A stretch of 54,419 nt of DNA, counting the filler, from Sphacelaria rigidula (taxonomy: Eukaryota), in NCBI GenBank assembly GCA_964200075.2. It is 5 parts of 5 records of this genome, joined end to end, with 100 filler letters (N's around TTAATTAATTAA, not from the genome) between each part and the next. Parts side by side here need not be neighbours in the genome. Positions count along the whole stretch, not along the records: positions 10,907 to 21,711 come from CAXNAA020005881.1; 4 more parts are not named here. One strand, given 5' to 3'. The number at the start of each line of letters is the position of its first letter. Positions within the stretch are counted from its first letter, which is position 1. The notes under the pieces are model-generated. The model was not told the origin of the DNA. It made no database searches and saw only the letters and a list, made by a program, of their open reading frames with translations. This document shows positions 10,251-42,700 of this stretch, one piece after another. A program made the position numbers and the translations under genes.

Positions 10251-10806
10251 CGTCGGGGAGGGGGGAGGGGAGGGAAGGGTGACCTAAAGGAGGCAAGTGG
10301 GATGCATACGTTCCAGTAACGACTCGCGTGTTCCGGGGCATCCCCGTCTGTATTTATAACCAGTCCTGACGGTAGACTAGAATGTTAGGGCGTACTCGGG
10401 AAATAAATTGGAGCAATATCTTCCTCGGGGTGCCTGTAGTCCCTTTGAGGAAAACAACAGGTATGGCGAGTGAGGAAAGGTTTGAGGCCTTTTTCTGGTG
10501 CCCATCACGCATTCCGATGCATTGTTGTCTAGCCGCAAACGACACACACGTCGGATAACACCCCCTGAGAAAGTTCGGGAAGGTAATACGTTGGCATTAT
10601 CCCCCGGAAAAGGGATGGCGGGTGGGAGAAGTCATCAGGCAGTCGGGTGGAGTGAATACATTCTAGCGATACATTCCTCATATTCAGGAACATCGCCATT
10701 CGTAGACAAAACTCTTGCACGGAATCAGTGAAGGGGAGGGGGGGGGGGAACGTACTCATTTGGTTGGTCGGAAGAGCGGCGGGTAGGGAAAGAGTGGAGA
10801 TCTCGG

Positions 10807-11704: not shown

Positions 11705-11944
11705 CCTTCTACGATACCCCCCCCCCTGAACCAACCCATAAGTGACACGAAAAAATAGTCAAACAGCGCCTGATGTTTGGGTTCAGGCTGCATGAAGCGT
11801 CTCACGTTGGCGACATTGGCGAGAACGAACCCAAGCGTGGGAATTCCCAGCTGCTCGTTCTGTTCGTTTTTCTCCATTCCGATTCACGTGAAGGTTTTGC
11901 CTCCCCAAACCAGGCACGTTTTGGGGGGGCGCTATCGTAGAAAG
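11705..11944. mobile_element. ~240-bp MITE, copy 1
   Basis: TIRs c(c/t)ttctacgata(g)cccccc ... ggggggcgctatcgtagaaag. Homologous along its full length, in opposite orientation, to 28184-28425. Confidence 0.85.
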
Positions 11945-13884
11945 CGTCCAGTTCAACCAGCAATGGAAGCCTGTGGGATGAGCACGTTAAGTCGTTACTC
12001 TTCATCTACAGATGGGCGTTAAATCGACTTCATTTCCGGGCTTCGAATGACATCGATTCAAAACGTCACCGTCGCTTGGATTTCTAGACACGATGAGCGC
12101 ATTTGTTCAAATGAGGGCGGTAAAGTGCAAAACGACTCAATGCCATACGGTTTGAAAAATACCATGGACGACGATGGCCAATTCACCATGTATGGCGAGA
12201 CGTACATGTTCTCACGAACTCGGTGGATTTCTTCAGGGATTCTACAAATTGGAAGGGCTTGGGAACTTTGGAGATTTTGTCTGTTGGGCGGCAGATACGG
12301 TCGATGACCTTGGACTGCATTTCCCGATAATTTTGGGGTGCTAGTTCGCAGTGTATGTAGTGAGTGACTCACAAAAATATGAAAGGAGCGTTGCCAGCTC
12401 TCGCCAAAACTTCGAGATTCAGCAGTCTCTTGCTCCATTTCCGCAAAAGTAGTACGTTGAAATATGGTCCTGAGTGTACTAGAAGTGGGAGTGTCGAATT
12501 TCTTCTCAGCTTTTACCGCAGACTCGCGAGGGGTGACTCTACGGCCCCGGCATGCAGGACCATCGCGCAGCCACGATGGAAAGCAGTGTCACACGAGCAG
12601 CCGTGGTTCACTTGCTGTCATCGCCGTTCCAGGCCGAATAATGCATTGTGAAGCGTGCTAAAACGTCAACGATCGAAAGTCAAGCCACCGTCACTTGTAC
12701 CCTCAGTTTCTCATCAACAGTCGCTGATGTCTTCTCCACGACTTTCTCAAGACAATCCACACATCCATGTGTCGGTCAGCTTTGTAGACGATCGACCTTA
12801 CAGTCTGTAGTGGCTGTATCCATCGTTTGTGGACCCCCTGTCACCATGAGGTCCTGGTCTCACTCAACCAGCCTCAGAATCGAAGCCGCCAGCACTGATG
12901 CGTCCAAAAACATGGAGCCTTCAGCATGAAAGCCTTGCTTGTACAGGCGTTCGCGAATACGGAATGTGAGGGCACGTGCAAATTCACATGCCCTCAGGTG
13001 GTCGACACAAGCACCATCAGTACGGTCGGTCACAGTGAGCACCACCTCAGGTGCTGAAAAATTCGAGAGCAGGGCGCACCTCCAGCACAAGGACGGCCTC
13101 CCCGCTCACCGCCGGCGACAAGTGGTACGACCATTCGTGAGAGTGGTCGATTTGGATCGTCGAAAAAAGGTGAGGGAAGTCCGAGGAGGATATTTCCCAC
13201 CGGTAGCCCTGCTGCTCGAGACAAGGGTAAAACAGGATTATACAAGTGGGCGTTGTAGGTATTCCTGCGGAGTGGATTTTGATGGGCTTGTAGCGAATCG
13301 CAGAAAATGTGATCGCCAGAGTTGAATGTCGGGTTAGTCTCGTCAATAGCAGGGGTTGGTTCCCGTTTTACCTGTGTATAGGTTTTGTGTTGCTCCCATG
13401 TTTTGCCGCAGAAAAAGAGGGGGATATCCAGCATGAACGCACACACGATTTGCCTACAGTTGCGAATGAATACGTGTAGGGTCCCTGGTTTACCATGGAA
13501 AAATGAGGCGAGGGGACTTTCATGCTACCGTTCAGTACAAATTTGCTCTTGTATGGGAGTGCGTAACCCATTCAGAAAATCAGAAAAATGAAAGGGAATG
13601 CGTAACGTATTCAGAAATCAGCGCGCGTTCATTTGTGCTGCAGGTCTCGCAATTCTTCGATTATTCAGTTCCGGACATTCAACCGTACGTCGGTAATAGA
13701 AAAAGCTGGTAGGTCCTGCCGCCGAAAAAATACGAAATAATATGGACAATAGTTCACATCCGTTCTGTGTACTGAACATGTGCCCAGGAATCAGCCTTGT
13801 AGTGCCTCGGAAACACAGTTCTGCACTCGAACACATACTCGCGTGAACCTGTCACAGGTTGGTTCAGACTTGTCACCCGAAAAA

Positions 13885-14640
13885 CACTCATCGGCAAACC
13901 CTCACGCCCTTTTAAGGCGTTAGACCCTGAAATTGTGCACAGATGTTTTTCACGCAACTTTCGAACGTCAAGGTGTATCGACCGTTTGATTTTTTCGCCG
14001 TTTTTCGGGGGTCTCAGTTTTTTCGCAGGAACATCAATTCAATTGTATCCCCGTAAACCGGTGAAGAAAAAAATAGAAAAAACTTCGTTCATGCTGAGTT
14101 GCGTAATGACCCATGGCACAGTTGTGCAAGGGTTCAGCGTCTAACTCCTCAAAAAGGCGTGAGGTTTTTTGCTTTCGTGCGATGAACCTTGACGTGCCGC
14201 GGTGAAATCGCAAACTACTTGATCTTAAAAAGAAACCAGCGTTTGTGGGCCTTGTTTGACGTTGACATGAAAACTCAAGCATCCGTTGACCGAGTTTTGC
14301 GGCGAAAGTTTGTGGGGCCCTTGCTTGGGTTATGCGGCGACAGCTCGTTCACGACAAAATGAAAAACAAGATCATAGTGCAGGTTTTCTGGGGTCTCAGA
14401 AAGGAGACTACTTCGAAAAACGACTTGGATCCCGTCGGACACGCGAAAAAAGGTGAAAAACTAAACAAGTAGAAAAAAAAACTCGCCCATGAAAAGTTGC
14501 GTAATGACACATGGCGTATTTGTGCATAGTTTCAGGCTCTAACTCCTGATTACGGCGTGAAGGTTTGCGCGTTTTGTGGACGACGTGGGCTTGAAACGTG
14601 CAACTCCTTACTACTTGGTTTTAGCATGAAAACATCTTCT
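13885..14640. repeat. Diverged ~390-bp-period direct repeat plus an inverted partial copy
   Basis: agttgcgtaatgac(c/a)catggc...tctaactcct...ggcgtga occurs at ~14097 and ~14494. A reverse-complement copy tcacgcc...gcgttagaccctgaaattgtgcaca lies at ~13902-13941. Confidence 0.7.
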
Positions 14641-17097
14641 GGGGTGAATTTCATGTCAAGGCAAGAAACACTGTATGAGGTTTTCAAGTTTCTCCTATCA
14701 AATTTGTATATGTGTCCCAGGACGCATCATTTTATTATTTTTCTTTCGGGGCCTCGTGTATCGCCTTCCGGGTTCCTTAATACTGGGACCCCCGGAAGCC
14801 GGTAGAGAGCGGAGAAACCATGCAATCTTGTCAAGAATACAACTTTTCGATTTGGAGCATCAATATCTACGGAACTGCCAAGTTTGAGAGCGATCTGAGC
14901 TTTTCTACAACAGACATCGGGGACACCGTCACGCGGCTCCCTGGGTCTTTCGTGCGTATCATTAGTGAAAATTAGAAGACACCAACACCCAACATCACCG
15001 AACTGTCACGGTTTCGGGTATAATTCGACCCCCGTAGTAACCGTTTCAAAATCTGTTGTTTTCGTGAGATTTCCGAGGCGATGAAGGTTACTACAATTTG
15101 AAGCGTGTGGAGATCATTGGATGAAATTGTGCTTGGGATTCGTCATTTCGATCTCGGAATCATTTGACGGGCGCTGATCGGTCGATATACCTTTTTGCCC
15201 TTAGCGCTACCGCTATGGTCTTACACACAAATCCGGTTATTCCACGCTCTTCACGTGTCCATGGCGGTTAGTATGATATCATGTATGCGACTATTGGGAG
15301 GGTATTGCGAAAGTCATTTCCTCATGACACAATTTTGGGTGATATGCGTGAACGAACCTATATGGTTTACCGGTGAGTATTCGAATACTTGTTCCAGTTG
15401 ATTTCGATTTCTTTTCAGGTTTTCCGGTCATCACGGGTTAACACGATTTCCGTTTGATCTCAAGCGTTGAGAAACGAGAGAAATAAATACCTGTCACAAA
15501 TCCGTAAAAAGCAACCTCCGACCTTAATCCTGCGAGCCTGGTGCGACGAAAAACTGGAGTGCTCCTTCCCGCCTTTGTAGGAATGCGAGGCTAATGGTCT
15601 CATGACTATGGCATGCACAGTGCTACAGCCGAAAAACCGTGTTCTTGGGGTCACATACATTCGATAATACTCCCTCGACAAAACGGAGTTCCGTCCGCGT
15701 TTGACACGACGAGATGGGGAAATGCGTCTTGAGCACAACCCGCTTCTTTTTCCAATGCCTTGCGATCCTCGATCTTTCGAGGTGAGGTGACATCGCCTGG
15801 GGAAAAAATCCCTATAGTGAACCACATGTTGAAACGTGAACTACTGCAACGCCTTGGCACTTCGACACTGCCGCCATGGTTGCAGGCTTCGTGGACCCCG
15901 ACGCGTCCACACCCAACAACACTGTTGTCTCATCATCCAGCTCAAAGGGTCACCATCATTGCACGCCCTACATCACAAAAGCAAAAGAGAGCCGCCTGGT
16001 AGTGACCCTTCTGCTGGTGTATGGACTAGAATGCTCGTGTCGCTGTTTCATCTTTTACTTCGTGCTCCTGGAAGGTCATCCGAAACCTCATCTCAGTTTC
16101 TTGTGCGTATAGGTCCACAGCTTGCGTTGTTTGTTAATAGTAATACTCGAATAAATATCCACGCTTGCGTACCCTCAACACCCCACGGCAGGTATTGCAG
16201 CCTTCAAGCACAGCACTTTAAATCGATGGCTTCATATGCACTCCCTTTGACTGATATGCTGTAGTGGGGAAGAAGTACTGCGTGTCATGTCGGGTCAAAG
16301 GACGTGGTTCGGGCATGGCCCTCAGGTAATTTTTCCACTTCACCCATGACGAGATAGTTGACGACTGTGGGAAAAATCCAAGCCCAAGAAGCTATTACTG
16401 CCAAAGCAGCCTGAATCGTGATTCATAGCGCGGAATCATGCTGACAGCCCATGCAACAAAGACGGCCGACAAAGTTGGCTGCGCCGCTGTCAGGTCAACC
16501 CGTTTCAGCGCACTTTCTGATAGGCCTGAATATCACGTCGCTGATAGCCGGGCGAAAGATTGAAGGATGTCCTCTTCGTAGGCGACGGTTGACGCACGTT
16601 GGACACGGGCGGATAGTGACAGTGTAGTTGATGAATATTTGTTTCGTATTAAGAAATACTTCGTCCCTGGACCATCACGTGGGAGTATAACGGAAAACAT
16701 CCCACCAGCGACCGTCCAGTTGTCGCCGACTCGATGCGTACCTATACACCACGGCATGCCAGGAGGCTAGGGTTGGCGACGTCTTCGCATACATGGGACA
16801 TTTGCTGCTGGCAGGATCATCGCCCATGGCGGTTTCCACGCGTCACGGCTGAACGTACAGGGGCAAAATATATGACTGAAGGCTATGATCGTTGCCCAAG
16901 GCGCGCTCGTTGATCCTCATGTCCTCTAGGCACGGAGCAGCGACGTTCTCGTTGCGGATATGAGTGTGGTTCATGGCTGACGAACGAGGGGTGCAGTCTA
17001 GCGTTATGGACCTTTCGAACTAATCGAAAAGCTGCTGCAGATTGGTCGGCAATGGAGGGATGAGAAACTACTCAACACGTTGTATACCATCTGTGGG

Positions 17098-17180
17098 AGG
17101 AGGGGGCGGGGGGCGTACTCATTTGTTGCTCGCCTTTGTCGTTTGACCATTGACCACGCATCCCTTTCGAGACGGGGCAC
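17098..17180 (-). mobile_element. Poly(C)-tailed short retroposon copy (subfamily 1)
   Basis: G-rich run followed by cgtactcatttgttgctcgcc...catccctttcgagacggggcac, flanked by the direct repeat tctgtggg. Confidence 0.8.
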
Positions 17181-18324
17181 TCTGTGGGGATATCTCAATG
17201 GTAGGACTTCGCACTCTTGCGACTACAAGGTGCCCGTATGCGTCCATGGTACTATGCGTCCATGGTACTATTGGAAACGTGTTGTGCCTTGTATTTCAAG
17301 TGCGAGTGCTCCCACAGGACAGATCCCAGAATTGGTGGCTAACGATCGCTTGGAAAAAAACGAAAACTAGAATCTTTTCAGTCGTCCTTCGGTATCACAG
17401 AGATGAAGACCAGGGACCTGTAAGAAATGCCCACCTGTTCTTACAGAGTGCATGTCCCGCCGCGTGTCGGGATCAAACGGGTGAATTAACGATCAGTCTC
17501 AAACGCTTTCGTGGGTTCGCTTCCCAACAGATCTGGTCTCGCTACACAGAATCCGGTTTCTGTCGTCGAAAAAGTGGAAAGTGGGTCCGAGCTGGGCCAG
17601 CCGAGAGTAGGTGTGAATCTTGCTCGGGCGAAGCACGGCGCGATATTAGGAGTTGGACGCTGAAATTTTTGACAGGAGCTTTTTATGATCGTAATGCAGA
17701 AGATCACGTGAGCAGCAAGGAATATATACATATATATATATATGAGCATTTAAAGTTTAAGCAAAAACAAGATAATGTCACAAGTCCAGGAAAAAAAGGA
17801 GAATCTGCAGCTGCCTACGTGAAGTATCAGTTCCTTTGGTGCAGAAGGTCTACGCGAAATTTCAGCTCGAGAGTCGTCGAATTGGGCCGTGCGTTTTACA
17901 TTTTCCGTAACGCTGCTGCACCCGTATAAATCAAGTGATGGGAGACTCCAATTATGGCGGTCATGGGTTCGAATCCCGACAGATTCTCTTTTTATTTTTC
18001 GTCCGTCGAGAAGGTCTACACTTCATAGTGTTACCAGGTTGTTCTACACTTCATAGTGATATGCTTACATCGGGTTCATTCGGGAAACTGGGAAAGATGC
18101 GGTGTGAGCAACTTCTAGTCGCTCTCGATCTGGTCCAGCTCGCAGCAGAAAAAAACTTCGGATGGAACCGACGAGCTGCGAGACTGCAGATCCAGTGCTG
18201 GATACACGTTACTTTGACACATGCACCGGGGAGGGGGTGGGTTGACACCTTGAGGCCATGACCTTGCCCCGGGAAGGGCAGGGGGTGTGGAATTGTGATG
18301 AGGAGAGCTACTAGAGCAATCCTC

Positions 18325-18875
18325 CAAGAGCAGGTCGGGTAGGGTATATACTTTTGAATACTCGGGCAAAATACCCGGGTATTTACTTTGCATCAGGTTT
18401 GGGTAGATTGGGTACGGCGTCAAATACTTGACTCAAATTCAAATAGATTCGGTCAGACCTCAACTACTCCACCCAACTATTGTGTAAGTACCCTCAGCAA
18501 AACCGGAGCATATAGTATCACTTGAGCATGACCTCAGTACACTACCCAAATTTAGGGTTAGGGTTAGGGTTAGGGTTAGACTATTGGGTACGACCTCAAA
18601 CACTCTGCCCATTTTTGGGGTAGATCGGGTACGACCTCAAATACTCTACTCGAATATTGGGTGAGCAACCCCTCAGCAACACCCGAGTATGGAGTATCAC
18701 TTGAGTATGACCTCCATACTCTACCCAAAATTTGAGCATCTTGGGTATCATCTAAAATACTCCACCAAACGTTTGGGTAGTTTGGGTGCGATTCCAATAC
18801 TCTACCCGACTGTTTGGGTAATACGAGTATAACTTTTCAAAAATACCAAGTATTACCCAACACGACCTGCCCTTG
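18325..18875. mobile_element. Non-autonomous hAT-like element (551 bp) with internal repeats and (TTAGGG)4
   Basis: Imperfect ~27-bp TIRs caagagcaggtcgggtagggtatatact / agtattacccaacacgacctgcccttg. 8-bp TSD caatcctc (18317-18324) / caatcctt (18876-18883). Internal ~60-bp direct repeat at ~18490 and ~18670. Confidence 0.8.
18552..18579 (+). repeat. Interstitial telomere-type repeat (TTAGGG)4TTAG
   Basis: ttagggttagggttagggttagggttag. Confidence 0.9.
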
Positions 18876-20914
18876 CAATCCTTCAATACTACTTACCGGC
18901 AACTATGCCCCAATATTTCGTCATGTTTGCAGGGATTGATTTTCCCAGTTCTAGTTGTAATACAACAGGGTCGATTACCGAGATGGCATCAAAAATCGAG
19001 AAAAAATATTTACAAACAATACCATCGTACTAGCACAGATGACGCCACATGAGCACTCGTGCAACGTAGCTCTTGTGAAGATTAGAGGAAGGAAGACGTT
19101 TCCCGACGCTGCAGCACAGCATCAGAAAGGAATGGTCAGATGCGGCACGGTACATTTCCTGTAGTGTCAAATGGTACGACGTAGCTTTTGCGACATAATA
19201 GTGGTCCTCCAGTAGGTTCCAACGCAGCTATGTCGTATCCACATGACAGAAATAACTTTTCACTCAAACCGTGAACCGTCTAGTAAGGTACGTGGCGGTA
19301 CGTCATAGCAGATGAATATGATGGGTTAGACAACAGTATTCATGAAAAGGTTGACGATGCCTAGACATTACAATTCTAGGTGCGACTCGTGGATACCCGT
19401 GAGTTACTAGTGAGTGGCTACAGCCTCCTGAAGAAATCCCCCAAGTACCAATGGAATGAACCACACCCTACCAGTCCGCGAGCACCCCCGGTGTCTTCGC
19501 GTGCGCCTAGTGTTTCAAACCCGTGTATTTCGGGAAGGGCCGGTGGATGCATAACCCCCATGACGCGCCCGCCAAGCAGCTCTTGCAGTTCAATGTACAA
19601 GACAGTACTTTGGTGCAACAAATGGCGGGTTGTTAGCTGGAGATCGTGAAAGACTTGTTTGTTATTTCTACGCTGCTCTGACTCCGCGTGTGCTCCACAT
19701 CACACGGTCCAAAGATCGTTCAGTTTTCTACGTTTCAACCCACATGATGGTGTCATGACGGTACCTGAAGCGGGCGGAGGAGCGTCAAGCTTAGCTACAG
19801 TGCTGAGTAGTTGTTTGTTTGGCACGACAAGCAAGACATGGAGATTTCCCCGAATTGTGACTTCACACATGTCGGGTCTATTCGACTCCGGGTGTATATT
19901 GGGGTACCGGAGCATGATACCTCATATCGTGTTTGCATTGTTGGTGAAGATCTTTTGACACGGGAGATAGCACCATTGTTTTCAAACGCACAACGAACAG
20001 CAACGCCGCTCGGCATGCAAAGCATACGTCCCCTGTAGTTGCACCATCTACTGACCGTGTGCAGCTAGCTGTTGGCTGCACGACTGCACTCAATATGGGA
20101 TAACGCTATCATCTCTGCCGTGAACCATGAAGGCATGTGGAGCAAATATGTTTGAAAAGATCAGTCATATTTACACAACAATCAACATTACCGCGGCACG
20201 GCAGGGTCAGCAGAAAGGACGGGGGGCGGAGTGCTCATTTGACCGCGTTCGCAGCTGCACTCCCCAGTGAAGTGCGCTCATTGAAGCAAGGAATATCACG
20301 GCTTACTTCGTAGCTGTAATTTGAATCTTTGCCAAAGCATGTGGATAGGTTGCACGATGCAGCTGAGATCTTTGCAGTCACGTCCGCCGATTCGACTCTG
20401 TGCTTCGTTTCTTTTGTGTAACGGGAGACACTTCACCCTTACTGGAACACCCGCCCGTCGTTCTTACAACAAAGGACCATTTTTCAGCAAACGAATTCGG
20501 TCTTTCGAATGTGTGTCTTGCCCGTTCAGTCCGCATTCATACTCTACTAAGCCGCCCCCAACATTTTCACGGCGCAGCTATGAGCATGCGACAAGGGATC
20601 AGCGGCGGTGATGTGGGTTGGGGTTCCACTGTGCCGGTGTGGCGTGTTTCGGTCACTTTCCTCGCGCTGCCACGTTCGAACGTCCACAGCTCAGAGCAAT
20701 CCTGTATAGATACACAGAGCCGCTCAGACCTACGTTGACTCCAATAAACTTCGATCTGGAAATTACATGTGTGTTCCCCATTGGACTCGGAACTGATCGT
20801 GATGACGAAAATCACGTTCCAAAAGCATTTCTGATCCTTCTTTTCCTGGCCAGACCCCTTCATGAAAAACGAAAAATACTCATGAAAGAGTACTTTCCCC
20901 CCATGTCGTATTTC

Positions 20915-20994
20915 ATGCTCCGTCTCGAAAGGGATGCGTGGTCAATGGTCAAATGACTAAGGCAAGCAACAAATGAGTACGCCCCCCCCCCCCC
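20915..20994 (+). mobile_element. Poly(C)-tailed short retroposon copy (subfamily 1) with clear TSD
   Basis: tgctccgtctcgaaagggatgcg...aaatgagtacg followed by C13. ccccccatgtcgtatttc is present on both sides (20897-20914 and ending at 21006). Confidence 0.88.
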
Positions 20995-21711
20995 ATGTCG
21001 TATTTCCAAAGGTAAAAATCTTCTCCACTGTGCGATCGATTGTGCACATTTCGGGCACAGGGGGGCATATTTTTATCGATCAGTGAAGTCGTGCATGCCC
21101 GAGTAAAACAGCACTGCATGGCAAAAAACGCATGGTGACAACAATTTCGGTAGCTATCTAAGTACGCCCACCCGATGATCAAGGCCAGCGTTGCTGGAAA
21201 CAGCGACGTCTAGCACCTACTGATATTTGCGAGAGCTTGCCACATCCAGCTAGGTATCGAATGATGGGTCACAGCTACGGATGGAATGCAAAACACTGAA
21301 GAAGGGTATGAGTACGGAAGATGACGCTTAGAGTCGTGATTTGGGTCCTCCGTTGTGGCTGAGCAGCCCAGCGACCCGCGCAAAGTTCCAGCGCATACGC
21401 AGTCGCACATACGTCCCTGCCCAGCTTCACATATCCAAGGCTCGTGTTAGTCAGAATCCATCCACTTCTTTGGGAACTACGGCAATCCGTGTTGGCGCCC
21501 AATTCACAACAGACGGTACATAGTTATCCGCGGTTGGAAAGGCCGCCTGAGAAGGGCTCTAAACGTACTGTAACTGGGGTAATGTACTGTTCGCTGGGGC
21601 AGTACAGTACCGGCCCGCTAGTAAGAAACGTGTCAGTAAGAAAATCGCCCTCAAATTTAGGCAAACTTAAGAAACGGCCCAGCCTCGGCATCTGCCGCAA
21701 GTTAAGAAAGA

Positions 21712-23973: not shown

Positions 23974-26900
23974 CTTCCACATGCACCCCCGTCCCCCACG
24001 AAGGTGTAGTCCCATATCTTGACGTTTTTTTCGGCTTTGCCGCAGGTCACCACCAGGCCCCCAGCACTCCCGGTATTTCGCGACAAAGCATCCGCCAGCT
24101 CGTGTGCAGGCGCAGCACTCACAGAGGACAGCATGTTTGGGATGTTGGTTACGACGGACATACTCGCCACGCCACCCGGATGCGCCCTGAATACCCCAGC
24201 AGACACCGCACGCGATCGACCTCCCCCTATTTGCATGCTGATGCGGCGATCCTGTCTGGATTTGGCGTTCTCTGAAGGGGCACGGTCATATTCGTGGTAA
24301 AACACCATGCGTCAGGGCAGCTACTGTCGGATTTCAGGAGAATTGGGAGCGTCATATTGCGTAGAAATCTTTCAGATATGGTGTCCGCTTTCTTCCTCCT
24401 CCTCCTCCTCCTCCTCCTCCTCCTCCTCCTCCTCCCCGTCTCTTCTCTTTTATCGTCATACTTTCAACCGTTCCCCTTCCTTTTTCTGAACGAATCAATA
24501 GCCCTCGAGGAATCGACCCATCTCTCCCGTGCCCCAGTACACGCCTTACATTTTGCTATCGCAGTAATGGATCAGCTCAGCACTCCCGCATCGCGTCGAC
24601 TCGCTCTTACCGGAATAGTTATCTTTGCTAGGTACGCCCTCACATGACAGAGGTAAGAAACTACGTATCACGAGGGGAAAGTAACGGTTGGGCGCTGCGT
24701 GCAAAATGATATGCATAAAACAAATGGTTTAGGTATCTTCATGACGCGCACCAACGACGGTTAGAGTTCAGGGGCGCCCACACAAGGAAGGTATCCGCGA
24801 CGCCACAGTCCGTTATCCTCCAGGGCCACCTGAACCCAAACTGCAGAATGGGTTGGGAATACGCAGAGGTCACCTTCGAAGGCCAAGCAGGAAACGTTCC
24901 ATACTCGAACAGTGCCGTCGCAGCCCCCACTAAGGAGATACACTCCATCCGCAATCATCGCCTCGATGGCATCCGTATGCCCCTGGCGAGTGTAGGTCAC
25001 AAACGAGTCGACTTGGGGTTTTCTGAGGGTGCATTGCATATTTACTTGCTGGCCTGCCCAGTCCCTGAATATCACGCTTCACAGCAGTGCTTACAGCAGG
25101 GGAAAAGAAAGACTACCACATGCAGAACGCGTAATATTTTTGCGTATGCTGGCAAGGGAACAACTGCTCGTTAAACACGAGCATACAGATTTTAGCAGGG
25201 ATTGGTCACAGTGTGCTAGAGCAACAGGACAGCCTGTGCCATAATAGAACAACAACACAACAACAGGGTAATACGCGGGATTTCACCCCCCTGACCCTCA
25301 CTCAACACCAGTGAAGCCTTCAATTTTTCAAACAGCGGGTTCGTATATGATCGCGTGATTTAGAGACCAAACAAGCCAGAACTAGAGCTGACTTTGGGTG
25401 TGCTATTGCCTCAGTCTCCTCCCCCGATAATGACCTTGTCCCGGAGGAATGCGATCGGCCGACATTCCTTGGTCGACGGGAGACGTCATCTATGGACAGG
25501 ATAGCTGGCAGCGGGACTTTTGACCATGAGCGACGTCACCCTATAGGAGGGGTGGGCTCGTTTACCTTTCAGAGATTTTTTGGCCTGGACGACCCATTCC
25601 GGAAAGTTATTGACGGCAGAGATAGCCCAAACGAACAATGAGTGTCCCAGTTCTGTCATCCGTCGAACACACAAGAACATGTAGAACATTGATTGCTTAG
25701 GCCGGCGACGTTTCTCTTTCCCTCTCTCCAGTACTTTTTTCTTACCCTGGGCGACGTCGTTCCCATGGTGATGCCGCCCGTTGACCAAGGGCTTTTTGGC
25801 CAAATTAGATGCCTCTGGTACAGCTCTTTTGTTTTGGCCGGTGAAAAAACTGCCGGCAAACTGCGGGCATCTTTCACTCATCTCGCGCTTCAATGTATAT
25901 GTGCATACTTTCTCCGTTATCACTCACATGCGCAGCGGCGCAAGTCTAAGAGAATAAGTCAGTCCAAACTGTATGCCTTGTGTCTCGATGTAAGATCCCG
26001 TCTTATCGAGACAAAAATAGTGAGGATATAATTGTGATTTCGAGCATGGATGTATGTGACTGTTCACAGTTTTTTATCCTTCTCATTGGTTGAGGGCTGC
26101 TGCTTTATGCTCAACGACCTTTCGGAGCAAGCTACAAAAATGATCATTTTATGATGATACAATTTTCGCACAGAGGAACAACTTGTTGAAAATGCAAGAT
26201 GCAGAATAAAAGGGATGCCGTGTGTGGGTTGTTCGGCTCATCATGGGGCCTGGACCACACACCAGAGGTGCACAGTTATCTGCTGGACGTGTGACGCACT
26301 GGTCCGTTCGTGTGTTGTCTGTGACGTTTTAAGAGACAACCAACTAGACTACTGACCCCGTCACATGTCACATCGAAAACGTTGTCATAGTCGAAAACAT
26401 AATTCCGTCGCTAAGAAATTCGGTCGATTTTTGTCGTGATTATGAGGTTGTGAAAGATCACAATCATTCGCGAAAGCACCTTTTTCCTCGACTTGTTTTG
26501 TCTCGACAAGACTCAGCTAACCTCCTCTTTAACCGTTTCTGAATGTTGGGAATAACAGGAGAGCACTGTGAACTACGGTAAAGCTCTAGAGTTGAACATC
26601 TATCGTTACACCCAACAACATTTCTTCTCACCTGCAGGCCCGCCAAGAAGGCGCAGCTGCCATCTCGGATGCGCCAACAACGCACTACGAGATCGTTTCC
26701 GGCGCTCGCCAGCAACGGCGTTTCCGCAGGCACGAAGGCGAGGCACAGAATTTCGCAATCGGAGCCGTCAACTGCTCCGTGCGCATGTTCGACGATAGTG
26801 TCCACTTTCGGAACCTGTTCAATATATATATATATATATATGTGTGTGTTTGCGGTTGAAAAAAGCAAAAAGGTCGGAGATGCCATGATCGGCCATGCTT

Positions 26901-29900
26901 TGCTTCATTTTAACTTAAGGCACTCACTAGCTATACTCCCATGTCGAGTTTTTTTTGGGGGGGTTACGCTCGCGCTAGGAAGTGTGGACGTTTCTAGGAA
27001 GTAGTGTTGTCATTCGGGATATGTCGACGATCGACATTGCGGTCATGAGGAGTGAGGTTTAGTGAATCGGGTGGTGAATGTTGTTGGTAGCATCTGCCAG
27101 ACGATTTGGACAAGAGAACTTTCAACGAGGGACCCTTCCAGTATCACTGGCCTCGTGCTCGACAAGCCCTTTCTACCAATCTGTTATTATCTCGGGGTGA
27201 TCCTCAACAGATCACGAGCCAGACAGCGAGGGGCCACACGAGAAGGGGACATCGGTCCAGGATCCCCTTTCCCCTGCCACTGCTCCAATCATGCATGCGA
27301 TTATGCTGAAACCTACGGCTTGGGATCATTTGGCTACATGTTACAGGTATAGGCGCAAAACGGCACTCGTTTTCAACTGTCGAGCTCCAAAAGCGAGAGG
27401 AGCTGGATCTGTGTATAATTGCGATATTATGAGTGACGCGCCGAGTAATCAATCTCGTTACGACCCGCTCTGCTACGTAGTTTTTTCCATCTTCGCTAGA
27501 GATCTGGTGGTATTACAGCGCAGGAGGCACAAACCCAAAGCCCAAACACGACTACACAAGTGTGCAAATAGTGCTCCGAAAAAATATCTGCATACGCTAC
27601 GAAGGACAAGACGGAAAAGCAGTGCATTCCGGCGATCTTTCGAAGCCGGTTTCGAAGATCACCGCAAAGAAGTATGATTGTTCTCGCCCGCAGACTCTCT
27701 CACCCTGTTGTCGCTGACGCCGTCTTTGGCGTGTGCGGTCCACACCGCGATTGTCCCGCCGAAGCCCGCGCTGGCGAAAAGTAAAGATCCGCGACTATCC
27801 CAACAAGAGGCAAGGGCGCTAACGGTGTTTTCGTGGGCCTTGAATGCTTCACTTGCGCCGGTGTCTAGCCGCCAGAACCGTACGTTGCCGTTGTCAATTC
27901 CTGGAAGAAGACATTGTATTCAAGCGTACGCGTTGGTCAGAACAAGGTACATGCGGGCCTCACGTTCGGTAGTGGGGACATCCTCGGGTACAATGGATGA
28001 GTACGCTCTTCGGAGCGGGAAGCACGTCGAAGTTGGGAGAACTTGCTCCAAGAGAATGAAGGACGTGGTATCCCGCCGCGGAAGCCATACCATGCGTGCT
28101 GTTGAGTGTCGAATGTGATCGCAACTCAGACTCTCGGACATGCCTGTATGTTGCCGAATCGATGTACGCGAACGATCCCGATACTTTCTACGATAGCCCC
28201 CCCCCGAAAACGTGCCTGGTTTTGGGAGGCAAAATCTTCACGTGAATCAAAGTGGGAAAAGCCGAGCACAACGAGCAGCTGGGAATTCTCATGCTTGGGT
28301 TTGTTCTCGCCAATGCCGCCCATATGAGGCGCTTCATGCAGCCTGAGACCAGACATCAGGTGCTGTTTGACCATTTTTGTCGTGACACTTCTGGGCTGGT
28401 TTTGGAGGGGGGCTATCGTAGAAACTTTCTCCCAACGTCTACTTGTCTCCACAACCTTCATGGTTATGCCGAGGCTGGGTACTGGCGAGTACCCCCTCCC
28501 CCCCCGCGCTCTACCCCCGATATGCATGTCACACCCCCGTTCACACCTATATATTTATACAGGGTATGACTTTTAGTCGCCAACCTTGACCTTACCCGTG
28601 GCCATGACGGATCCACCGGGCAGCACCAGCATGCTCGTCACCTCCTCGTGGATAGGATGCCGCATGCGGTACTTTTCACTCATGCCGCGCGTCTCCCACG
28701 CCCTAACCGTTCCGTCCACACACGCCGACAGTACGACTAGTCCGAACACCTCCTCCTCCCCCTCCTCTTCTTGCTCTTGTCGACCTCGACTATCGTTTTG
28801 GCTCCCGCCGCCGCTCGGAGTGAGGGGTGTTGCGTGTCTCGCATCCCCGCCTAGACGAGAAGTGCTGCGTGAGTGGGCCTCCTTCTCCGCGTGTGCACTG
28901 CCCTTGTTGTTCGACTCCGGCGAGGGGGTAACGGCCTTGTCTTGATCAACTTTCGTAGCTGCATGGAGATCATAGGCAGCAGCGGCAGCGGCGCCCGCTT
29001 GAAAGGTTGGGTCGATGGCAGCAGCGGCAGCGGCCCGTCGGTCTGACGATTTCGCCCCTTCGAAGCCCATGCCCACTATGGTATCGTCGTGACGGCCGAG
29101 GACGGAATAGCCGTCTACTTTCACCTGACGCACGGTTCCCAACGGAAATGTTTTCAAAAACGCGCAAGATTTCGTTCACGTAGTTTACTCTGTACGTGGG
29201 ATTGATGGGTTGTGTAATCGATTACGCACATCAAGTCGTTCCCAAGGGATTCAGGCGCAATCACGAGATAACACATATGTGCCAAATGTACCGAACGTGA
29301 ACCAATCAGAACCACTCGCTTAAGGAAACTCGAGAAGAGGGGGGGGGGGGGCATACTCATTTATTGCTTGCCTCAGTCGTGTGACCATTGATCACGCATC
29401 CCTTTCGTGACGGAGCAAGAGGGGGGGGGGGGAAACACAAACAAAATGGCTAGGGGAAGAAGGACGAGTAAAACAAACAGAGTGAAGTATCTCAACAGAA
29501 ACGAGAGACATGAACGTGAAAGACAAGACCTGTGTTTTACTACAGTGATTTGACAAGGTCGAACAAGGTCCCGGCTCATCTGAGGCGGAGAAAGAAAGAG
29601 GTACGTGAATCTGATCGACGCCTGGTTGAACCGGCTGCACTGCGGGTGCCATTCCCGCTTCTGTGAACACGTAACAACACTGGCTGCTACACGGAACCAC
29701 TCATGCTAGGCCAGGAGGAACCAACACAGACGGTACCTTTGACACCAATCGCTACGGTCTCACAAAAGCGCAAAGTAATTCTGATGACAGAAAAGCCCAC
29801 CCTAAGACGACCTGATGGTCCAGTCGATGTTCGCGGCGGAGCACACCCACTGTATCCGGACTGCAGAGCTATTGTATGCAATATTCCAGCTCGATCCCGG

Positions 29901-31822
29901 AAAACACATAATTTCTACAGCCTTTGACTCAGATAACTAACTATCCTTCGTACAACCGTTGCGGTCGTCGTAAAAAAACGGGAAATATACTCAGGTTGCT
30001 CACGTCACACTGCTCGCACGCACGACAGTCACCACAACGTAAAGGCCGAGTGCTAGAGCCCAGCTAGACATTTGGCGATGGCTGGCGGAAAGAAATTCCT
30101 CACTTACCATTTTCCATCGGAAGAAGCAAGCCTCGGCCGGAGACATGGCGTACAGTGCACCCTCAGCCTTTGAAGAATGGAAGCCAAGCAATGCGGGCGA
30201 GCCGGGACCCCGGCGGGGCCCGGTGGCCGGGATAGCCTTGGCCACCTTTTTTCGCAGCAGTAGCTGCGTGATGTTTTGACGAATAAAATGCAACATGGCG
30301 TGATATACCATCAGAAAAAGACAAACACTGAAAACAGCCTTCGGAAATTCACGCGAGTGACGAGCAAAATGATATATATATATATATATACACACACATA
30401 AGTCTGACACCGTAAGTTTGCGGAGAGCGGAAACATGCACGAATGAAAGATCCGCACTCGAAATCACAAGGATCTGTAGTGACAGTTATAGGGTTCAAGG
30501 CCTGGTAGTGAGCACACGTCTTTCTTCTCGCCAGGTTAGCCGTGACGAGTGAAGGGACCCGTTGAGACCCATGGCAAACGCTCGCCCCAGCCTCGTCCCA
30601 AGCACCGTGCGGACCGTGCTCGATGAGCTTGACTGTTCAATTTCCGACGGACTCCGAAGTACTGTAGTGAGTCAGCTCCTTATAATTAGCGAAATAAAAA
30701 CTCTCGGAAAAAGTGTCTGTTTCATCCTTCTGCATTGGTTCGCACGCGACGAATGGTTCTGGCGGATTCTGACACCTCGGTAAAACTTGCTGCATATACT
30801 CTTTGAGACGGTTCCGGGACGTCCTTGCGTTATCCAGTGGCCGCAGGGAACTCTCTGGCCAAACTAGTAATTTCTTCGACGAACGGTTATATATATATAT
30901 ATATATTTACATCAGTTGTTTTTTTGGGGGGGAGCTCCTCCCCAGCAATCTGACGATTTTTGGTGATGAATGCGGAAAATCCCCGATTCGTTCCGAGGTC
31001 AAAAACTGCGTGCACCGGAAAACGCGGTGTCGAAATCGTCTCGGATAGGAGAGAAAATCATTCCGAGGTGGCAATAGAGCAAATCATTCCCAGTTTTCAG
31101 GATCTGTCTGGCCCTCTTCTCCGGGCGTAAGATGTGGCGGCGGAGTCAACAAGACATCTCCATCCACGTGTGTCTCTTTTCGAATAGTAAGAGGCGGCCT
31201 GCTGTATCCCTTGTTGCACAGGAAAATTTGTTCATTCATAGGCAGCTACAGAGTCATGCCACGGCAAGGGGGAGGATGTGTCCTTCCACGAATGAAGAAG
31301 GGCTCGTAGGTACGTCAGGCGGCCTAACACACTCGCGGTGCGCTGGTATTTGGGTAAAAACGGTGGCAAGCAGTATGAATGAGCGTTATTGAGCGTTATT
31401 TATCGGTAACAAGGGCGTTCGAACAACTGCTGCTGTTTTTGACGGCGATTTGAGGTGGAATTTCGCGGAGGAAACGGCCGATAATACCCCCCCGCGCGCC
31501 CCATGTGGTGCTCCGTCTCGAAAGGGATGCGTGGTCAATGGTCAAACAACTAAGGCAAGCAACAAATGAGTACGCCCCTCCCCCCCCCCCCCCCCCGCGC
31601 CCCATCGTAGAATGATTCTACAGGCTTCCGTTAGCTGCTAATTGCCGCTACCCATATTCGCCGTGGTACTGCGCCTGCCGCACTCACAGATTCAGTGTAC
31701 GTATTCCACACTTGTACAACACCCGAGGCATTGGCAAGCACCAGCTGCTCGTGCGCGAGATCCCAAGCCACCGACGTGAAGGGGGAGTGATCGTCGCTCT
31801 TGAGTGTCATGAACGTACTACC
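23974..31822 (-). CDS. WD40-repeat protein, seven internal exons (5' end beyond contig, 3' end unresolved)
   Basis: Phase-consistent GT-AG exons: 31822-31688, 30263-30108, 29124-28596, 27900-27704, 26814-26632, 24982-24874, 24271-23974. WD motifs include SACVDGTVRAWE, AHENTVSAL..ASAGFGGTIAVW, LLASAGNDLVVRCW, GHTDAIEAM..LLSGGCDGTVRVWN and NVKIWD. Confidence 0.88.
24394..24434. repeat. (TCC)n microsatellite (intronic)
   Basis: About 13 TCC units. Confidence 0.95.
28184..28425. mobile_element. ~240-bp MITE, copy 2 (in WD40 intron)
   Basis: TIRs ctttctacgatagcccccc ... ggggggctatcgtagaaac, preceded by TA. Homologous to 11705-11944. Confidence 0.85.
29339..29416 (-). mobile_element. Poly(C)-tailed short retroposon copy (subfamily 1)
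   Basis: G14 followed by catactcatttattgcttgcctcagtcg...gacggagc. aaga plus a G-run is duplicated on both sides. Confidence 0.82.
31505..31596 (+). mobile_element. Poly(C)-tailed short retroposon copy (subfamily 1)
   Basis: gtggtgctccgtctcgaaaggg...aaatgagtacg followed by a C-run. Flanked by cccccccgcgcgccccat / ccccccgcgccccat. Confidence 0.85.
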
Positions 31823-37300: not shown

Positions 37301-39721
37301 TATGAATCTAAAATAGACGCAGCGGCTTCATGCGTATAACCCCGTACGCTGTATACTGTACATTGTATGCTGTACGGTTGCATAGCCGTTCAATTTTCAC
37401 TCCATTGAGTGGGGAGTGAGAGTACCTTGGTCCTTGTCGACTCGTACTTTGTGCTGAGAAACTCGCCCCCGAATTGCTTGGCGGTGAAGTGCATGTCCTC
37501 TATGGTGAGTCTTTTTCGCACGGCACGCTGCGCAAATACACAGGCTGGGCACCACGTCTTCTCCACATGCATTTTTTTTCCCGTATTGTTGGTATACATG
37601 ATACAGGTTCAGGGACCGCCAAGGCAGGGACAGGCACAGACACAAAGACGAGGGGGGGGGAGGAGGCGCACACACACGCATACATACACAAACGGTTAAT
37701 ACCGGAGGGATGCGCACTCGTGATCTTGCATGCCGTGGACATACGAACAGCGGAGCGAGGGGCGGGGGGGGGGGAGGGAGGGGTGTACTTATTTGTTGCT
37801 CACCTTCGTCGTTTGACCATTGACAGAGCGGGGGGGGGGGAGGGTACTCATGACCTTGCATGCCATAGCCACAAGCCCTTTGACCTCGCATCCCTACAAA
37901 GCCGGGACGGCGCACGCCAGGTTTTTGCTGAACTAGGCTGGCAATCAATCACCAAGCGTGAAGCGCCGTGATATGTTTGGCGAGTCGCATGAAGGGTGAG
38001 CTGCATCCTGCTCAGATTGTTCGGCCCGATGGGGAAGCGTACTGATTATCTTGCATTTGGATGACAGCCTCCAATAAGTTGCTTCATTTTCTGGTGTTGC
38101 CACTTTCAGAGACAGCCACGGCTTATACTGCCTCATCAGTGTCCCACCAGGGGGGGGGGGGGGTTCGATTGACAAAAGCATAGTAAACATGCTGAATCTA
38201 TCGACCCGCGTATTCGATCATCACTCCCGCACCGCGTCGACTCTCACGGAAGAAAAATACCATGTTTGACACTCGCGTCCTCACATTTTCACCGACCCAA
38301 AAATCAGGTGACTATCCGGAGAAAAACCCATATGCGCCCGACTGGAATCAAACCCGCGTTTTCACCGACCTTGTGGGGGTACTGATCTCAGTTGTACCAT
38401 TAGACTACCGAGGCGCGGCGGCCTTGCGGGATAGGTCACGGTGTACTTCGGCTCAGTATCGTGGGATCAATTGCTTCTACCGCCGACACACGCGTTTAGG
38501 CGCTGCCGTGTCACTACGTCGTGCAGCACAGAGAGCTATCGGTCTAGTCGGGGCTCATGACTATCGTCGAAACGAAAATAAACTGTTTTGGAATATTGAC
38601 GGTGTAACGGTCACGTTGAGGCATGCGTACTTGCGGGACGATTGTAGGGACACCTGTGGTGGCAAACATGACTTGCCCCAAACATAAGTGCATCTGATTG
38701 GCCGAGACGGCAGAAGATCTGATCGCACAGAGACACGTACATCAGTCACCCCTGATGGGCGGGTGTGATGAATAGCGGTGAGCTCTCGATAACGCTGACA
38801 GTTTTGAGCTGGCAGCGCAGCGGGGATGTGCATCTCTGTGTGTTGTAGTGTAGGTGTCCAGGTCGTCGCTGGACTGTTCCCGCATCGAGGGGAACGTAAG
38901 GGCGCTGACCGTCACGGCACCATAATACATACAGTCATATTCAGTGTCATGTGTAGCAGTGCGTGTATGTTGTCGTCCCAACTACTCCGGACGCCGGTCT
39001 ACACTTTTCGGTATATGTGGGCGCACCAGCCGGGGTCACACAGGAGGAAGGCCAACACATTCGTTTTCATTTTTTTTGTTTGTTTCAGTTCTCCACCTTC
39101 CTCCTGCGGTATTTGTCTTTTTCTTTAACGCGAAAGGGGTTCAGCAGTCCCTTTCCCTCGTCGACAATTATGTCGAATTTTGTGTACCCACGACATAGTC
39201 GCTCTGCACTGTTGGGCGTTGTGTGAGAATAAAAAACATATCGCTCCGAGATTTGAACCCACGACCCAACTGTCAGAGGGTTTCGAGGTTACCAACTGAG
39301 CCACCGGGGCGACAGGTGTAGCAGTGCCATACAGAAACACCACAGTTTGTACAGGGGCGTTCCTCCGTGATTGTACCACGTATGGTTAAGGCTACTATCC
39401 GTAATGCGTGCACCGGAATTCTGATTATGTAGAATCTGCGGCGTTGCCAAACATGGAGAGCGAAGAGAAAAACATTTGGTGCACCCGAGGAGTTCTCTGA
39501 TACAGGTACCGCGTGAAAATGTCGGTACTCGCCGTTCGCCACTTTCGGGTACACGCGCCAAGATGGAGGTGCAGTCGGGGGGGGGGGGGGGGGAAAAAAA
39601 AAATCAACGGCCCCCCCAGTTGGGGTTCCCCAAGAGGGAAAGAGGCGCGGCNNNNNNNNNNCCCCCCCGCCCCCCCCCCCCCCCCCTCCGCGGCCGGCCG
39701 CGCGGGGGCGGGCCACCGGCG

Positions 39722-39756
<35 letters not shown>

Positions 39757-42700
39757 CGAAACACAGTTCCAGTCACACCTGTTGGATTTGCAGTCATGGT
39801 GAGGAGTTCTGCCGTCTCGGCTAATCAGATATAGCCGTACCTGCGGCAGTTCATGCCGCTACCAGAGCTATACCCGAACATGTCCGCAAAGTACTTCGGA
39901 ATACCTGGACGTGATTGTCACCTTTTGGGAACACTCACATTATGGTAAAATATGTTGTTCGGTGCAGTCTCCCACTCGTGACCCTCGGCACATCGGAAGC
40001 GAAGCTTCTCGACCATTCCTGGTTTTCGTTTTTCAATGAACAAATAAACAACGAACAGACGAAAGTCGAGACAAATAGCCGGCAGGTCAATTTCCATATA
40101 CATCAATATTTCATTTACCCATCGGGCAAACGGGATGGTAACTACAATAGGTCGAGCACCGTTGGATGCGACCTTCAAGCAGCAGCACAAACGGCCCGAG
40201 TAGCGTGAGTACGTAACTACAGTCAAGGACGGAAACTTCACGGAAAGAGTCCAACATGCATTCCCGAATACATATCTAGCAAAAGCAGGGTACGCCGTGC
40301 CAGGTATGACGTCAAAACCATCCTACTGATGATGTCGGATGCACTTGGATGGTCCACCTTGCTAGCCTTCCTGGCTTTCTGTTTCCCGGAAAGACTCTCT
40401 GTCTCTCCTCTCACACACACTCTCTCTAGGGCTGTCAACCTGCGTGCGCTCCACACTAATGCAGTAAATCCACGAACTCAGACTCTACACTACTAAAAAG
40501 GCACCGACACAGCGCCCGCGACCGCCAATCTTCTCCCGGGACATGAGTCTTGCTACATAGCCTCAGACACCAAAAATCATGTGACATCAACGTGCGTTTA
40601 TAGTCGAAAAATAGGAAGATTGCGTAACATACAGTGTTTTCAATATGTTTTAATTATACTTTTAGTAAAAGGTCAAATTAAAATACATAAAAAAATGTAA
40701 AAAAAAAAGAAGGGGAAAAAACATGATAATTAGATTTTGATTAATGGGCCTGCGCCGAGAAGTGCCTCTCCTGACACACCACTCGATCGAACCCCTTCCG
40801 TGGTTTTCAGTTCATTTGCACAATATACAGTAATACCTCTGAAGACGGTAGACAGGCACTCTCCTCCTTTATCCTTCGCGATTTGCTGCATGAGCGCAAG
40901 GTCTCGTTTTCGCTGGGTGGGCGCTTGCATTTGAACTTTATACACTCTCGAATCGGCACAAGTGGGACAATAGAAGCATACCGGCTGCCCGTTAGCCGCC
41001 CAAACGTGCCCTCTGTGGTCAGTTTGGACCGGAGATACAAGGGGGCAATGGTTGGGACGGGGCGGGGCGGGGGGGAGGGGGTCAGTTTTTCTTTTACATA
41101 ATTTCACAAGGGAAACAATTCAACGCAATATTTTATATATACACGAGCCAGCACTTTCGCACAGCGTCTATTATGACCCACCCCCCGAGACTGTGGTTTG
41201 GAGTATGATCCTAGTTCATTCCACTCCTTTCGTATCGTACCTAAAACACTCCTCACCCCTTATTTTATCATAGGGGAGGTGGAAGGGGGACAATCAGCAA
41301 TAAATACGTTTCAAGTTGAATCATTGTGGTGCAAGTATATGCTCAGGCGTCAAAACATGTTGAATTCTTGGGATAACTGGGAACAACTTTACAAGTTGAA
41401 TAATTGTAGCACAAGTATGTGCCCAAGCGTCAAAACATGTTGATTTTTTACGGAGACTTAGAACAACTCTCTGGGGCGAGGCGAGCGGGAAGGGGGGGGT
41501 GTAGTCATGATCTTGCATGCCGTAGTCATAAGACCATTGACCTCGCATCCCTACAAAGCCGGGACGGAGCACGCCGGGTTGTCGCCGGACCAGGCTCACA
41601 ATCAATCACCCAAGCGCGAAGCGCCTTGGTGTGTTCGGAGAGTCGCATAAAGGGTGAGCTGCATCCTGCTAAGATTGCCCGGTCCGAAGCGTACTGATTA
41701 CCTTGCATATGGATGACAGCCTACAATGAGTTGCTTCATTTCATGGTCGCCACTTCCAGAGACAGCCCCGGGTTGTACACTGCCTCATGGGTGTCTCACC
41801 ATTTACACACTACGTAGTATGATCACCCCCTTTGCGCGGAGTTGAGGTTCTCCCACCCCGCAAACTATCATGTAGCTCGATCACCACCATGGCTACCGCG
41901 AAAAAATGCGAGCGCACAACAGAAAACGGTAACTTGGTTGCCTAGCCTACACAATGAGTTGCGTGTTTACAGCGTCATCGCGAACCGACGTCAACCCCAT
42001 AGGGGGTCCGCCCTTACAAAGCCTGGACCGAGAACGCCGGGTTTTCGCCGGACCAGGGGGGGGGGGGGAGGGAAACAACGTGCGCCGGTACAGTAGTGTA
42101 GGTATCGGTATGATGACAAAATAATAGCACCAAGAACATTACAGTACAAGTACAACGTACCTACACTACTACTACAATGCCCACGCACAACAGGACGATT
42201 GGAAAAACACAAAAGCAGGTGAATATCACCCATCAACTCAAAGTACAGGTTAGCTGATTTCTCAGAAACCGGATTGACAATACTTGCAAGGTATCTGGCG
42301 ATTCTGATTCTGTAGCCTCAGGCGATACCCGAGTTTTCATCAATATCCCCAAAAACAAGTACTGGGGTGTTATTCAGGGGGTGTTATTCGGCGTAATGGT
42401 TCAAAACGGTATCGAATATGGTAAGTGTTATGCATATTATAGTGCGGTACGTGATACGTCCGCAACACAACAACACCACCATGACCACCAAAATGAGTGG
42501 TTCATGTTTCCACGTGTGCTAAACTGTTTTGATTATGGTAACGGAGAAAAGTGATCGGAACGAACGCACTTGCGGCCGTTCACCTACGGGAACTATTGTC
42601 AGTTTGTGAGCAAGGGAAAGTGGAACACAGAAGGGAAACACTAGACACGAGCAACGCCCTGTCCCGCACTAGCTTACGAGTACCAAGTTACGGTGTTCGT

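Follow-up and report, generated by a model that had tools for sequence, protein, structure and literature searches.

C-tailed retroelements with a common 3' end in DNA of the brown alga Sphacelaria rigidula

In mammals, the long interspersed nuclear element (LINE) L1 and its non-autonomous passenger Alu have poly(A) tails and insert by target-primed reverse transcription (TPRT) at nicks of the type TTTT/AA. Pairing of a LINE tail with the nicked target is thought to guide the choice of landing site, and the well-studied cases are almost all A/T-rich. Tails composed of short repeats are known from "stringent" pairs of LINEs and short interspersed nuclear elements (SINEs), e.g., UnaL2 and UnaSINE1 of the eel, and from elements of the CR1, L2 and RTE type. 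Among LINEs with an apurinic-like endonuclease (APE), Waldo, Mino, Kibi, Koshi and Dong are listed as targeting the microsatellites ACAY, AC, TC, TTC and TAA, respectively (PMC3812793). The RTE-X LINEs described from the brown alga Ectocarpus are accompanied by RTEX-N1_Ec32, a non-autonomous element of ~600 bp, which has its 3' end in common with RTEX-1/2 (PMC12477816). Here, short repeated sequences with C-rich tails are described from a stretch of 54,419 nt of Sphacelaria rigidula DNA, filler included (assembly GCA_964200075.2; referred to below as the window), which consists of five pieces of ~10.8 kb each joined via N-spacers. These sequences probably represent two brown-algal families of retroelements without long terminal repeats, i.e., a LINE with its short derivatives (S) and a separate element (L), which have a common 3' end, are C-tailed and insert by TPRT at C-runs.

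The C-tailed 3' module and its parent LINE

A first-pass annotation of the window had proposed a single family of related copies with one fixed, C-tailed end. The fixed end is borne out: a 3' module of ~65 nt is present in 10 significant copies (BLAST and nhmmer), i.e., one about every 5 kb, in addition to a 15-nt stub and an internal fragment. The copies are at 20916, 31509, 17115, 29353, 37785, 37844, 37716, 32150, 41501 and 15567. All nine copies that keep their 3' end terminate in ...ATGAGTAC(G/A), directly followed by a C-rich run. The word ATGAGTACRCCCC, allowing at most two mismatches and followed by C, occurs 10 times in the window, compared with 1.93 occurrences expected from 100 shuffles, none of which reached 10 (maximum 5); one of the 10 matches (27997) is probably due to chance. 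The single family has given way to two, S and L, which have only the 3' module in common. The features are as follows, where TSD denotes a target-site duplication.

20897..20914 (+): upstream TSD of S copy 20916, C6 + ATGTCGTATTTC; the exact 18-mer is found again at 20989-21006
20916..20981 (+): S copy comprising the final 66 nt of the LINE (19 codons, TGA, GTACG)
20982..21006 (+): C13, of which ~7 C are tail and six belong to the TSD, then the remainder of the downstream TSD
31487..31605 (+): S copy 31507-31574, TSD CCCCCCCGCGC(GC)CCCAT on both sides, tail C4TC17; 97% identical to copy 20916
17090..17188 (-): S copy 17114-17180, C-rich tail, TSD CCCACAGA
29336..29432 (-): S copy 29352-29417, TSD C12TCT(T)
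10730..10765 (-): 15-nt S stub at 10751, ..CAAATGAGTACG, then TT, C11, T, C4
32128..32531 (-): full-length L copy L32 (~400 bp), C-rich tail, 5' end the same as that of L41
41482..41882 (-): full-length L copy L41 (~400 bp), tail C8TTCCC
15531..15617 (+): old L fragment, 3' end and tail not preserved
42012..42068 (-): internal L fragment, C13 directly before it
37704..38163 (-): nested chain, from 5' to 3': a C14 target; an L copy truncated at its 5' end (37841-38149); its C-tail, into which an S copy of 41 nt (37784-37824) has inserted; a further C-tail; an L fragment of 41 nt (37706-37746)

The clearest S copy is that at 20916, where positions 20897-21006 hold, in order, the 18-bp word CCCCCCATGTCGTATTTC, an A, the 66-bp element, C13 and ATGTCGTATTTC; the last six C open the second 18-mer. 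The element has the terminus ...ATGAGTACG, followed by extra C, and is matched without a difference (66 of 66 nt, query 2-67) by the 3' terminus of a LINE found in two external sequences, L011 and L110. A tblastn search placed the LINE C-terminus at 20917-20973, i.e., the last 19 residues are encoded there. S copies encode these residues and correspond to the extreme 3' end of the LINE; judged by sequence, they are extremely 5'-truncated copies of this autonomous element. The six S copies (20916, 31507, 17114, 29352, 37784 and the stub at 10751) are mutually 88-100% identical.

The parent LINE was found by scanning public collections with a 20-mer of the module and separating real loci from bare 20-mer matches. 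The metagenome collection yielded 3 real loci among 69 (the other 66 being bare matches), the prokaryote-labelled genomes 1 among 57 and the viral collection none; a longer 3'-end pattern returned L110 again and nothing further. All four real loci have one common sequence upstream of the module. The same sequence is seen as loose ends before 20916 in a large share of public contigs (Logan contigs of four runs, X3-X6, aligned to 10907-21711, the piece that comes from CAXNAA020005881.1). The open reading frame (ORF) of the LINE was found outside the window, as an open frame of 1253 aa in L011 and a complete frame of 1360 aa (~4.1 kb coding) in L110. Pfam domains in the L011 frame are Exo_endo_phos (residues 64-285, E=3.1e-11; Exo_endo_phos_2, E=9e-7) and RVT_1, a reverse transcriptase (RT) domain (residues 634-883, E=7.7e-33), and a Cys/His motif near the C-terminus of the LINE ORF can be read off the sequence. 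In the window itself, no RT or endonuclease domain was found by Pfam in 160 of the 173 stop-to-stop frames of at least 90 aa, the remaining 13 being overlapping frames.

Both frames end in ...APSRKGCVVNGQMTKASNK-TGA-GTACG-(C)8-13. The stop codon lies inside the ATGAGTAC word, and the "3' untranslated region (UTR)" is composed of GTACG and (C)n; the 65-bp module is the last 19 LINE codons plus TGA and lies inside the coding sequence. Because the APE and RT reading frame runs toward the C-run and stops 5 nt before it, the C-run is a sense-strand 3' tail. The possibility that the G-run end is the transcribed 5' end, raised by the first-pass annotation as one that would count against it, is rejected by this orientation. 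Truncation is likewise asymmetric, with the 3' end fixed and the 5' end cut. All those refuting conditions of the first-pass annotation that could be put to the test turned out to favour its interpretation.

With an RT domain, an N-terminal apurinic-like endonuclease, a fixed 3' end, 5' truncation and variable TSDs, the element is an APE-type LINE. It is not Penelope-like, as it has an APE domain in place of a GIY-YIG endonuclease and Rfam gave no hammerhead match in the window, or on the S copy and L41 at E up to 10; nor is it of the L1-like poly(A) type, since its tails are C-runs and its TSDs start with C. Searches of the PDB and the ESM Atlas resolve it no further than an APE and RT LINE; the best PDB match is the solved L1 ORF2p, a remote similarity (E ~1e-20) confined to the RT domain. 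Recent activity is indicated by copy 20916, which shows no difference from the LINE and is flanked by a perfect TSD, and by the intact ORF of L110. L110 itself is a 5259-bp contig in a 4.6-Mb bacterial bin, and is mis-binned, since the complete LINE it carries is the only match there. Its reverse complement contains, at ~463-555, part of a third 3' module, which is inverted, more divergent and not directly followed by a C-run.

The L element is a separate sequence of ~400 bp, the similarity of which to S is confined to the last ~65-70 nt (77-84% identity). One nhmmer profile recovers the module in both families; the MAFFT alignment of S with L is out of register in its 5' third. No match of L to the LINE protein was found by tblastn. 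A tRNA, 5S or 7SL head was not found by Rfam on L41 at E up to 10 or in the window at gathering score, nor a tRNA by ARAGORN; L is therefore not a SINE in the strict sense, which would have such a head with a Pol III promoter. Its homology with the 3' end of an autonomous LINE is that of LINE-dependent 3'-sharing elements, and L would be mobilised by this LINE. L is presumably a non-autonomous passenger that borrows the last ~70 nt of the LINE as an RT recognition site.

Direct duplications flank all five S copies longer than the stub. They are 8-18 bp long and each opens with a C-run, as had been proposed from four copies in the first-pass annotation. The exact flanking words are 18 nt (20916), 11 nt (31507; 16-18 nt with a GC indel), 8 nt (17114), 15 nt (29352) and 17 nt (37784), and the TSDs read C6ATGTCGTATTTC, C7GCGC(GC)CCCAT, CCCACAGA, C12TCT(T) and CCCTC11GC, respectively. 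The last of these is the 17-nt word CCCTCCCCCCCCCCCGC, which flanks S copy 37784-37824 inside the tail of an L copy. The parts that are not C-runs, i.e., ATGTCGTATTTC and GCGC..CCCAT, cannot be compositional. After GTACG, all four external LINE copies continue C-rich, as C13, C8GCACC.., C11GC5.. and CCTC7.., and behind 20994 the contigs of the four public runs continue as C15 or longer.

Relatives with other tails

Relatives of the LINE protein are found in marine contigs (88% and 73% identity) and in Ectocarpus (55-71%), where the homologues carry the title "unnamed protein product [Ectocarpus sp.]". A profile search of prokaryote-labelled genomes gave 28 loci, most of them in one 16-Mb record, G002, with 33-48% protein identity to the brown-alga LINE. 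G002 is labelled as a metagenome-assembled genome of Nitrospirales, and holds eukaryotic-looking DNA in contigs of up to 2.7 Mb. It contains at least 41 copies (L128-L154, L156-L185) of a LINE with APE and RT domains, (TAT)n/(TTTA)n tails and TSDs.

At their 3' end, the G002 LINEs keep ...TGCGTGGTCAATGG...CATGAGTA / GGCAGCAACATGAGTA, with the TGA stop at the same place within the word, and continue with (TAT)2-4 or (TTTA)3-4 in place of C. Throughout the C-termini compared (P0001-P0006 and the G002 loci), ..G(C/R)VVNG.. and the TGA inside ..ATGAGTA are kept. The presumed RT recognition site at the 3' end would thus lie inside the coding sequence in this clade, with practically no 3' UTR. Since the same module is followed by (TAT)n/(TTTA)n in one lineage and by (C)n in the other, the module is ancient and the C tail a lineage-specific switch. 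A crude exact-word search at 30 G002 loci gave three credible TSDs of 14-15 bp, starting TTTT, TTTA and TACT, as well as one internal match and two long duplications; these numbers do not suffice for a logo. In both lineages, a likeness is seen between the tail and the TSD start. A switch of tail on one conserved module, with the TSD start changing alongside, offers a natural test of what decides the insertion site, tail-target pairing or endonuclease preference alone.

Insertion at C-runs and alternative explanations

Architecture of the families, orientation, parent ORF, tails, nesting and TSDs are seen directly in the sequences. The mechanism proposed for them, which matches the C/G analogue of L1 put forward in the first-pass annotation, is a variant of TPRT in which the C-run would serve both as tail and as target. 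The endonuclease would cut the bottom strand where a G-run ends on its 3' side (5'-GGGG/WW; WW/CCCC in terms of the top strand). Once freed, the G-run would anneal to the terminal (C)n of the RNA and prime cDNA synthesis. A staggered cut of the top strand 8-18 bp away would then yield a TSD that opens with the C-run, and each insertion would leave a longer C-run, i.e., a fresh target.

Such renewal of targets would account for the excess of C/G runs and for copies that are nested or in tandem. Insertion into a tail is seen in the window at 37704-38163 (L copy, tail, S copy, tail, L fragment), and head-to-tail copies linked through the tail are found in public contigs. The window contains 17 C/G runs of at least 10 nt, compared with 5 A/T runs; nine are at S or L tails or targets, one is in an inverted repeat resembling a miniature inverted-repeat transposable element (MITE), and seven are unexplained. 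Downstream C-runs exceed upstream ones by ~7, 15, 16 and 1 nt in the four non-nested S copies (e.g., 13 vs 6 at copy 20916 and C4TC17 vs C7 at copy 31507), and copy 17114 has ~16 nt of C-rich tail ahead of its TSD; therefore, an insertion usually brings its own C. The first-pass annotation had further noted W-W before the upstream C-run. This is seen at six sites (TT, TA, AT, TT, AA and TT), and as a target feature it is suggestive only.

A number of observations weigh against this account. The concentration of 5' ends at ~65 nt is unexplained by simple random truncation. The predicted RNA stability of the 3' module is ordinary (four modules folded, z -0.29 to +0.38), so that a stable stem-loop is unsupported. 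Full-length L32 and L41 have no clear TSD and no upstream C-run, and at S copy 29352 a downstream run of C13 compares with C12 upstream, which a target-derived tail fits equally well. The W-W pattern is based on just six sites, and the T's at 20888-20896 and 10749-10750 follow a GAGTAC-like word and may belong to an older stub rather than reflect a preferred nick site. No recognised copy adjoins seven of the long C/G runs (17 in all), and the ends of the MITE-like repeat also carry C/G runs. Public contigs break at repeat edges (last positions 20921 and 17128, first positions 20990 and 17152-17154), and neither a bridging contig nor an empty site was recovered from runs X3-X6 over 10907-21711; these runs are not on record as RNA, and RNA 3' ends are not visible in them.

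The length distribution of S copies bears on the nature of the 65-nt unit. Variable 5' truncation, as claimed in the first-pass annotation, is seen in a range from 15 nt (one copy), 41 nt (one copy) and 64-68 nt (four copies) up to the 1360-aa ORF, but it is not evenly variable, as four of the six S copies begin no more than 4 nt from TGCTCCG. Among the matches listed, tandem joints lead from 20994 to 20916 or 20917 in 42 and 12 contigs, respectively, of run X4 (54 in all) and in 12 and 1 of X3 (13 in all), i.e., the next copy starts at the same place. This clustering of 5' starts and joints near TGCTCCG suggests a discrete unit. It is possible, if somewhat doubtful, that a processed or protected 65-nt RNA with its tail is copied as a mini-element by the LINE RT, with tandems arising via template jumping. 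However, other copies are shorter (41 and 15 nt) or longer (1 kb or more), the loose ends before 20916 follow LINE sequence, and no ribozyme or other Rfam family was found on the S copy at E up to 10, where, as on L41, only chance microRNA and small-RNA rows appeared.

The origin of the C tail allows a second alternative, which overlaps heavily with insertion of a C-tailed RNA at C-runs. A microsatellite-specific LINE could target pre-existing (C)n/(G)n in the manner of Waldo, Mino, Kibi, Koshi and Dong, in which case the tail would be target DNA extended by slippage and the RNA need not end in C. The C-run that opens the TSD in five of five S copies, the nearly equal runs at copy 29352 and the abundance of long C/G runs (17 in 54 kb) are all in line with this explanation, and APE-type LINEs that insert into simple repeats are on record (PMC3812793). 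It is nevertheless unlikely, as targets can be as short as C4-C7 (17114, 20916 and 31507), and the runs downstream exceed them by 7-16 nt and are interrupted (C4TC17, C6GC5TCCT). Moreover, (C)n stands right after GTACG in four of four near-full-length copies, such that a read-through RNA would contain C.

Untemplated addition of C, whether a cytidylyl-transferase extends the RNA or the bases are added while it is reverse-transcribed, rather than copying from a master gene, is a good deal less probable still. Tail length does differ between copies (C8 to C17 and more), and C-rich RNA tailing is reported from the mitochondria of an alga (PMC5727444); yet a templated origin suffices, given the (C)n after GTACG in every near-full-length copy, and the relatives show templated-looking (TAT)n/(TTTA)n at the same place. 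That the unit is no 3' C-tailed retroelement at all, with the G-run end as its 5' end or as a DNA transposon or satellite, is almost certainly wrong in spite of the tandem copies and of the MITE-like repeat with C/G runs in its inverted ends, because the APE and RT ORF continues into the module, with its stop 5 nt short of the C-run, the copies are flanked by direct duplications that differ in length and lack inverted ends, and the 5' end is cut whereas the 3' end is fixed.

Two C-tailed families inserting at C-runs thus remain the preferred reading, with consequences for the host genome. In the bin of the element, summed contig depth is 592072, compared with ~10-20 in unique bins of run X3, a value that is not a copy number. 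The element is extremely abundant and seeds long C/G homopolymers that break short-read assemblies; standard repeat annotation would overlook its 65-bp stubs or assign them wrongly. A bolder proposal, which we regard as tentative and rather improbable, is that the tail-target pairing of TPRT has been re-tuned from A/T-type repeats to C:G, that the self-targeting family is the main source of the genome's long G-runs (potential G-quadruplex DNA), and that the 65-nt unit is a minimal retrotransposition substrate. If true, this unit would be among the smallest known mobile retro-units.

Other observations concern the surroundings of the copies. Upstream of the C6 target of copy 20916 (20885-20902), ..AAGAGTACTTT resembles the stub ..ATGAGTACGTT + C11 at 10751 (10738-10765); by this likeness, the C6 target may be the tail of an older, ultra-short stub, TT included. 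The seven unexplained C/G homopolymers (10-34 nt) are at 9315-9332, 36949-36967, 37203-37212, 39577-39593, 39670-39686, 39723-39756 and 43481-43499; one follows a T10 run and two flank a 10-N gap at 39652. Possible origins are tail-only insertion, other families with such tails, and slippage. The MITE-like repeat (~240 bp, at 11701-11948 and 28184-28423) has 31-nt inverted ends that are 81% complementary and include a C/G run (TTCTACGATAG + Cn); its two copies are 86% identical, and its summed contig depth is very high in public runs. An ORF with four cysteine-rich EsV-1-7 motifs (10908-11315, -) is consistent with a brown alga, as are the best named protein matches, which are to Ectocarpus, and the label "algae metagenome" among the public runs. 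Fragments of host genes are found at 2094-3605 (-; FNIP-repeat ORF, 503 aa, eight repeats), 45201-45989 (-; zf-C2H2_jaz ORF) and 24764-25078 (-; WD40 exon).

Comparison with known systems

Like L1/Alu, the system combines APE and RT domains with a fixed 3' end, 5' truncation and variable TSDs that open with the tail base; older tails serve as insertion sites, and there is a passenger that is non-autonomous. In contrast to L1/Alu, the tail and the TSD start are C rather than A, a single ORF is followed by essentially no 3' UTR (GTACG), and the passenger has a specific 3' module of ~70 nt in common with the LINE, not merely a homopolymer. As in the stringent pairs, LINE and passenger have a conserved 3' module followed by a simple repeat; here, however, the repeat unit is a single C, the module is in coding sequence and a stable stem-loop is not predicted.

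Waldo, Mino, Kibi, Koshi and Dong likewise each have one kind of simple repeat as their insertion site and are then flanked by it. The five targets listed for them are di- to tetranucleotide repeats, none of them a C/G homopolymer, whereas the targets found here can consist of only 4-7 C (PMC3812793). Closest by organism are the Ectocarpus RTE-X elements, which are likewise brown-alga LINEs with abundant 3'-sharing non-autonomous partners, frequent 5' truncation and very short families. The main text of that work, as far as consulted, is silent on tails and targets, and the present LINE may belong to one of its RTE-X, RTE or "LINE/Unknown" families (PMC12477816).

The first-pass annotation knew of no such family in brown algae, which holds for the C tail: no C-tailed or C-run-targeting LINE was found in the open literature, as far as consulted, including the Ectocarpus work (PMC12477816), the Saccharina genome (PMC4421812) and the survey of microsatellite-targeting LINEs (PMC3812793), and Repbase, Dfam or supplementary annotation may record one. 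It does not hold for the LINEs as such, since Ectocarpus LINEs of this sort with 3'-sharing partners have been described (PMC12477816). Given the Ectocarpus homologues, the brown-alga LINE family itself is already known, and relative to the sources consulted it is the C tail that is the new aspect.

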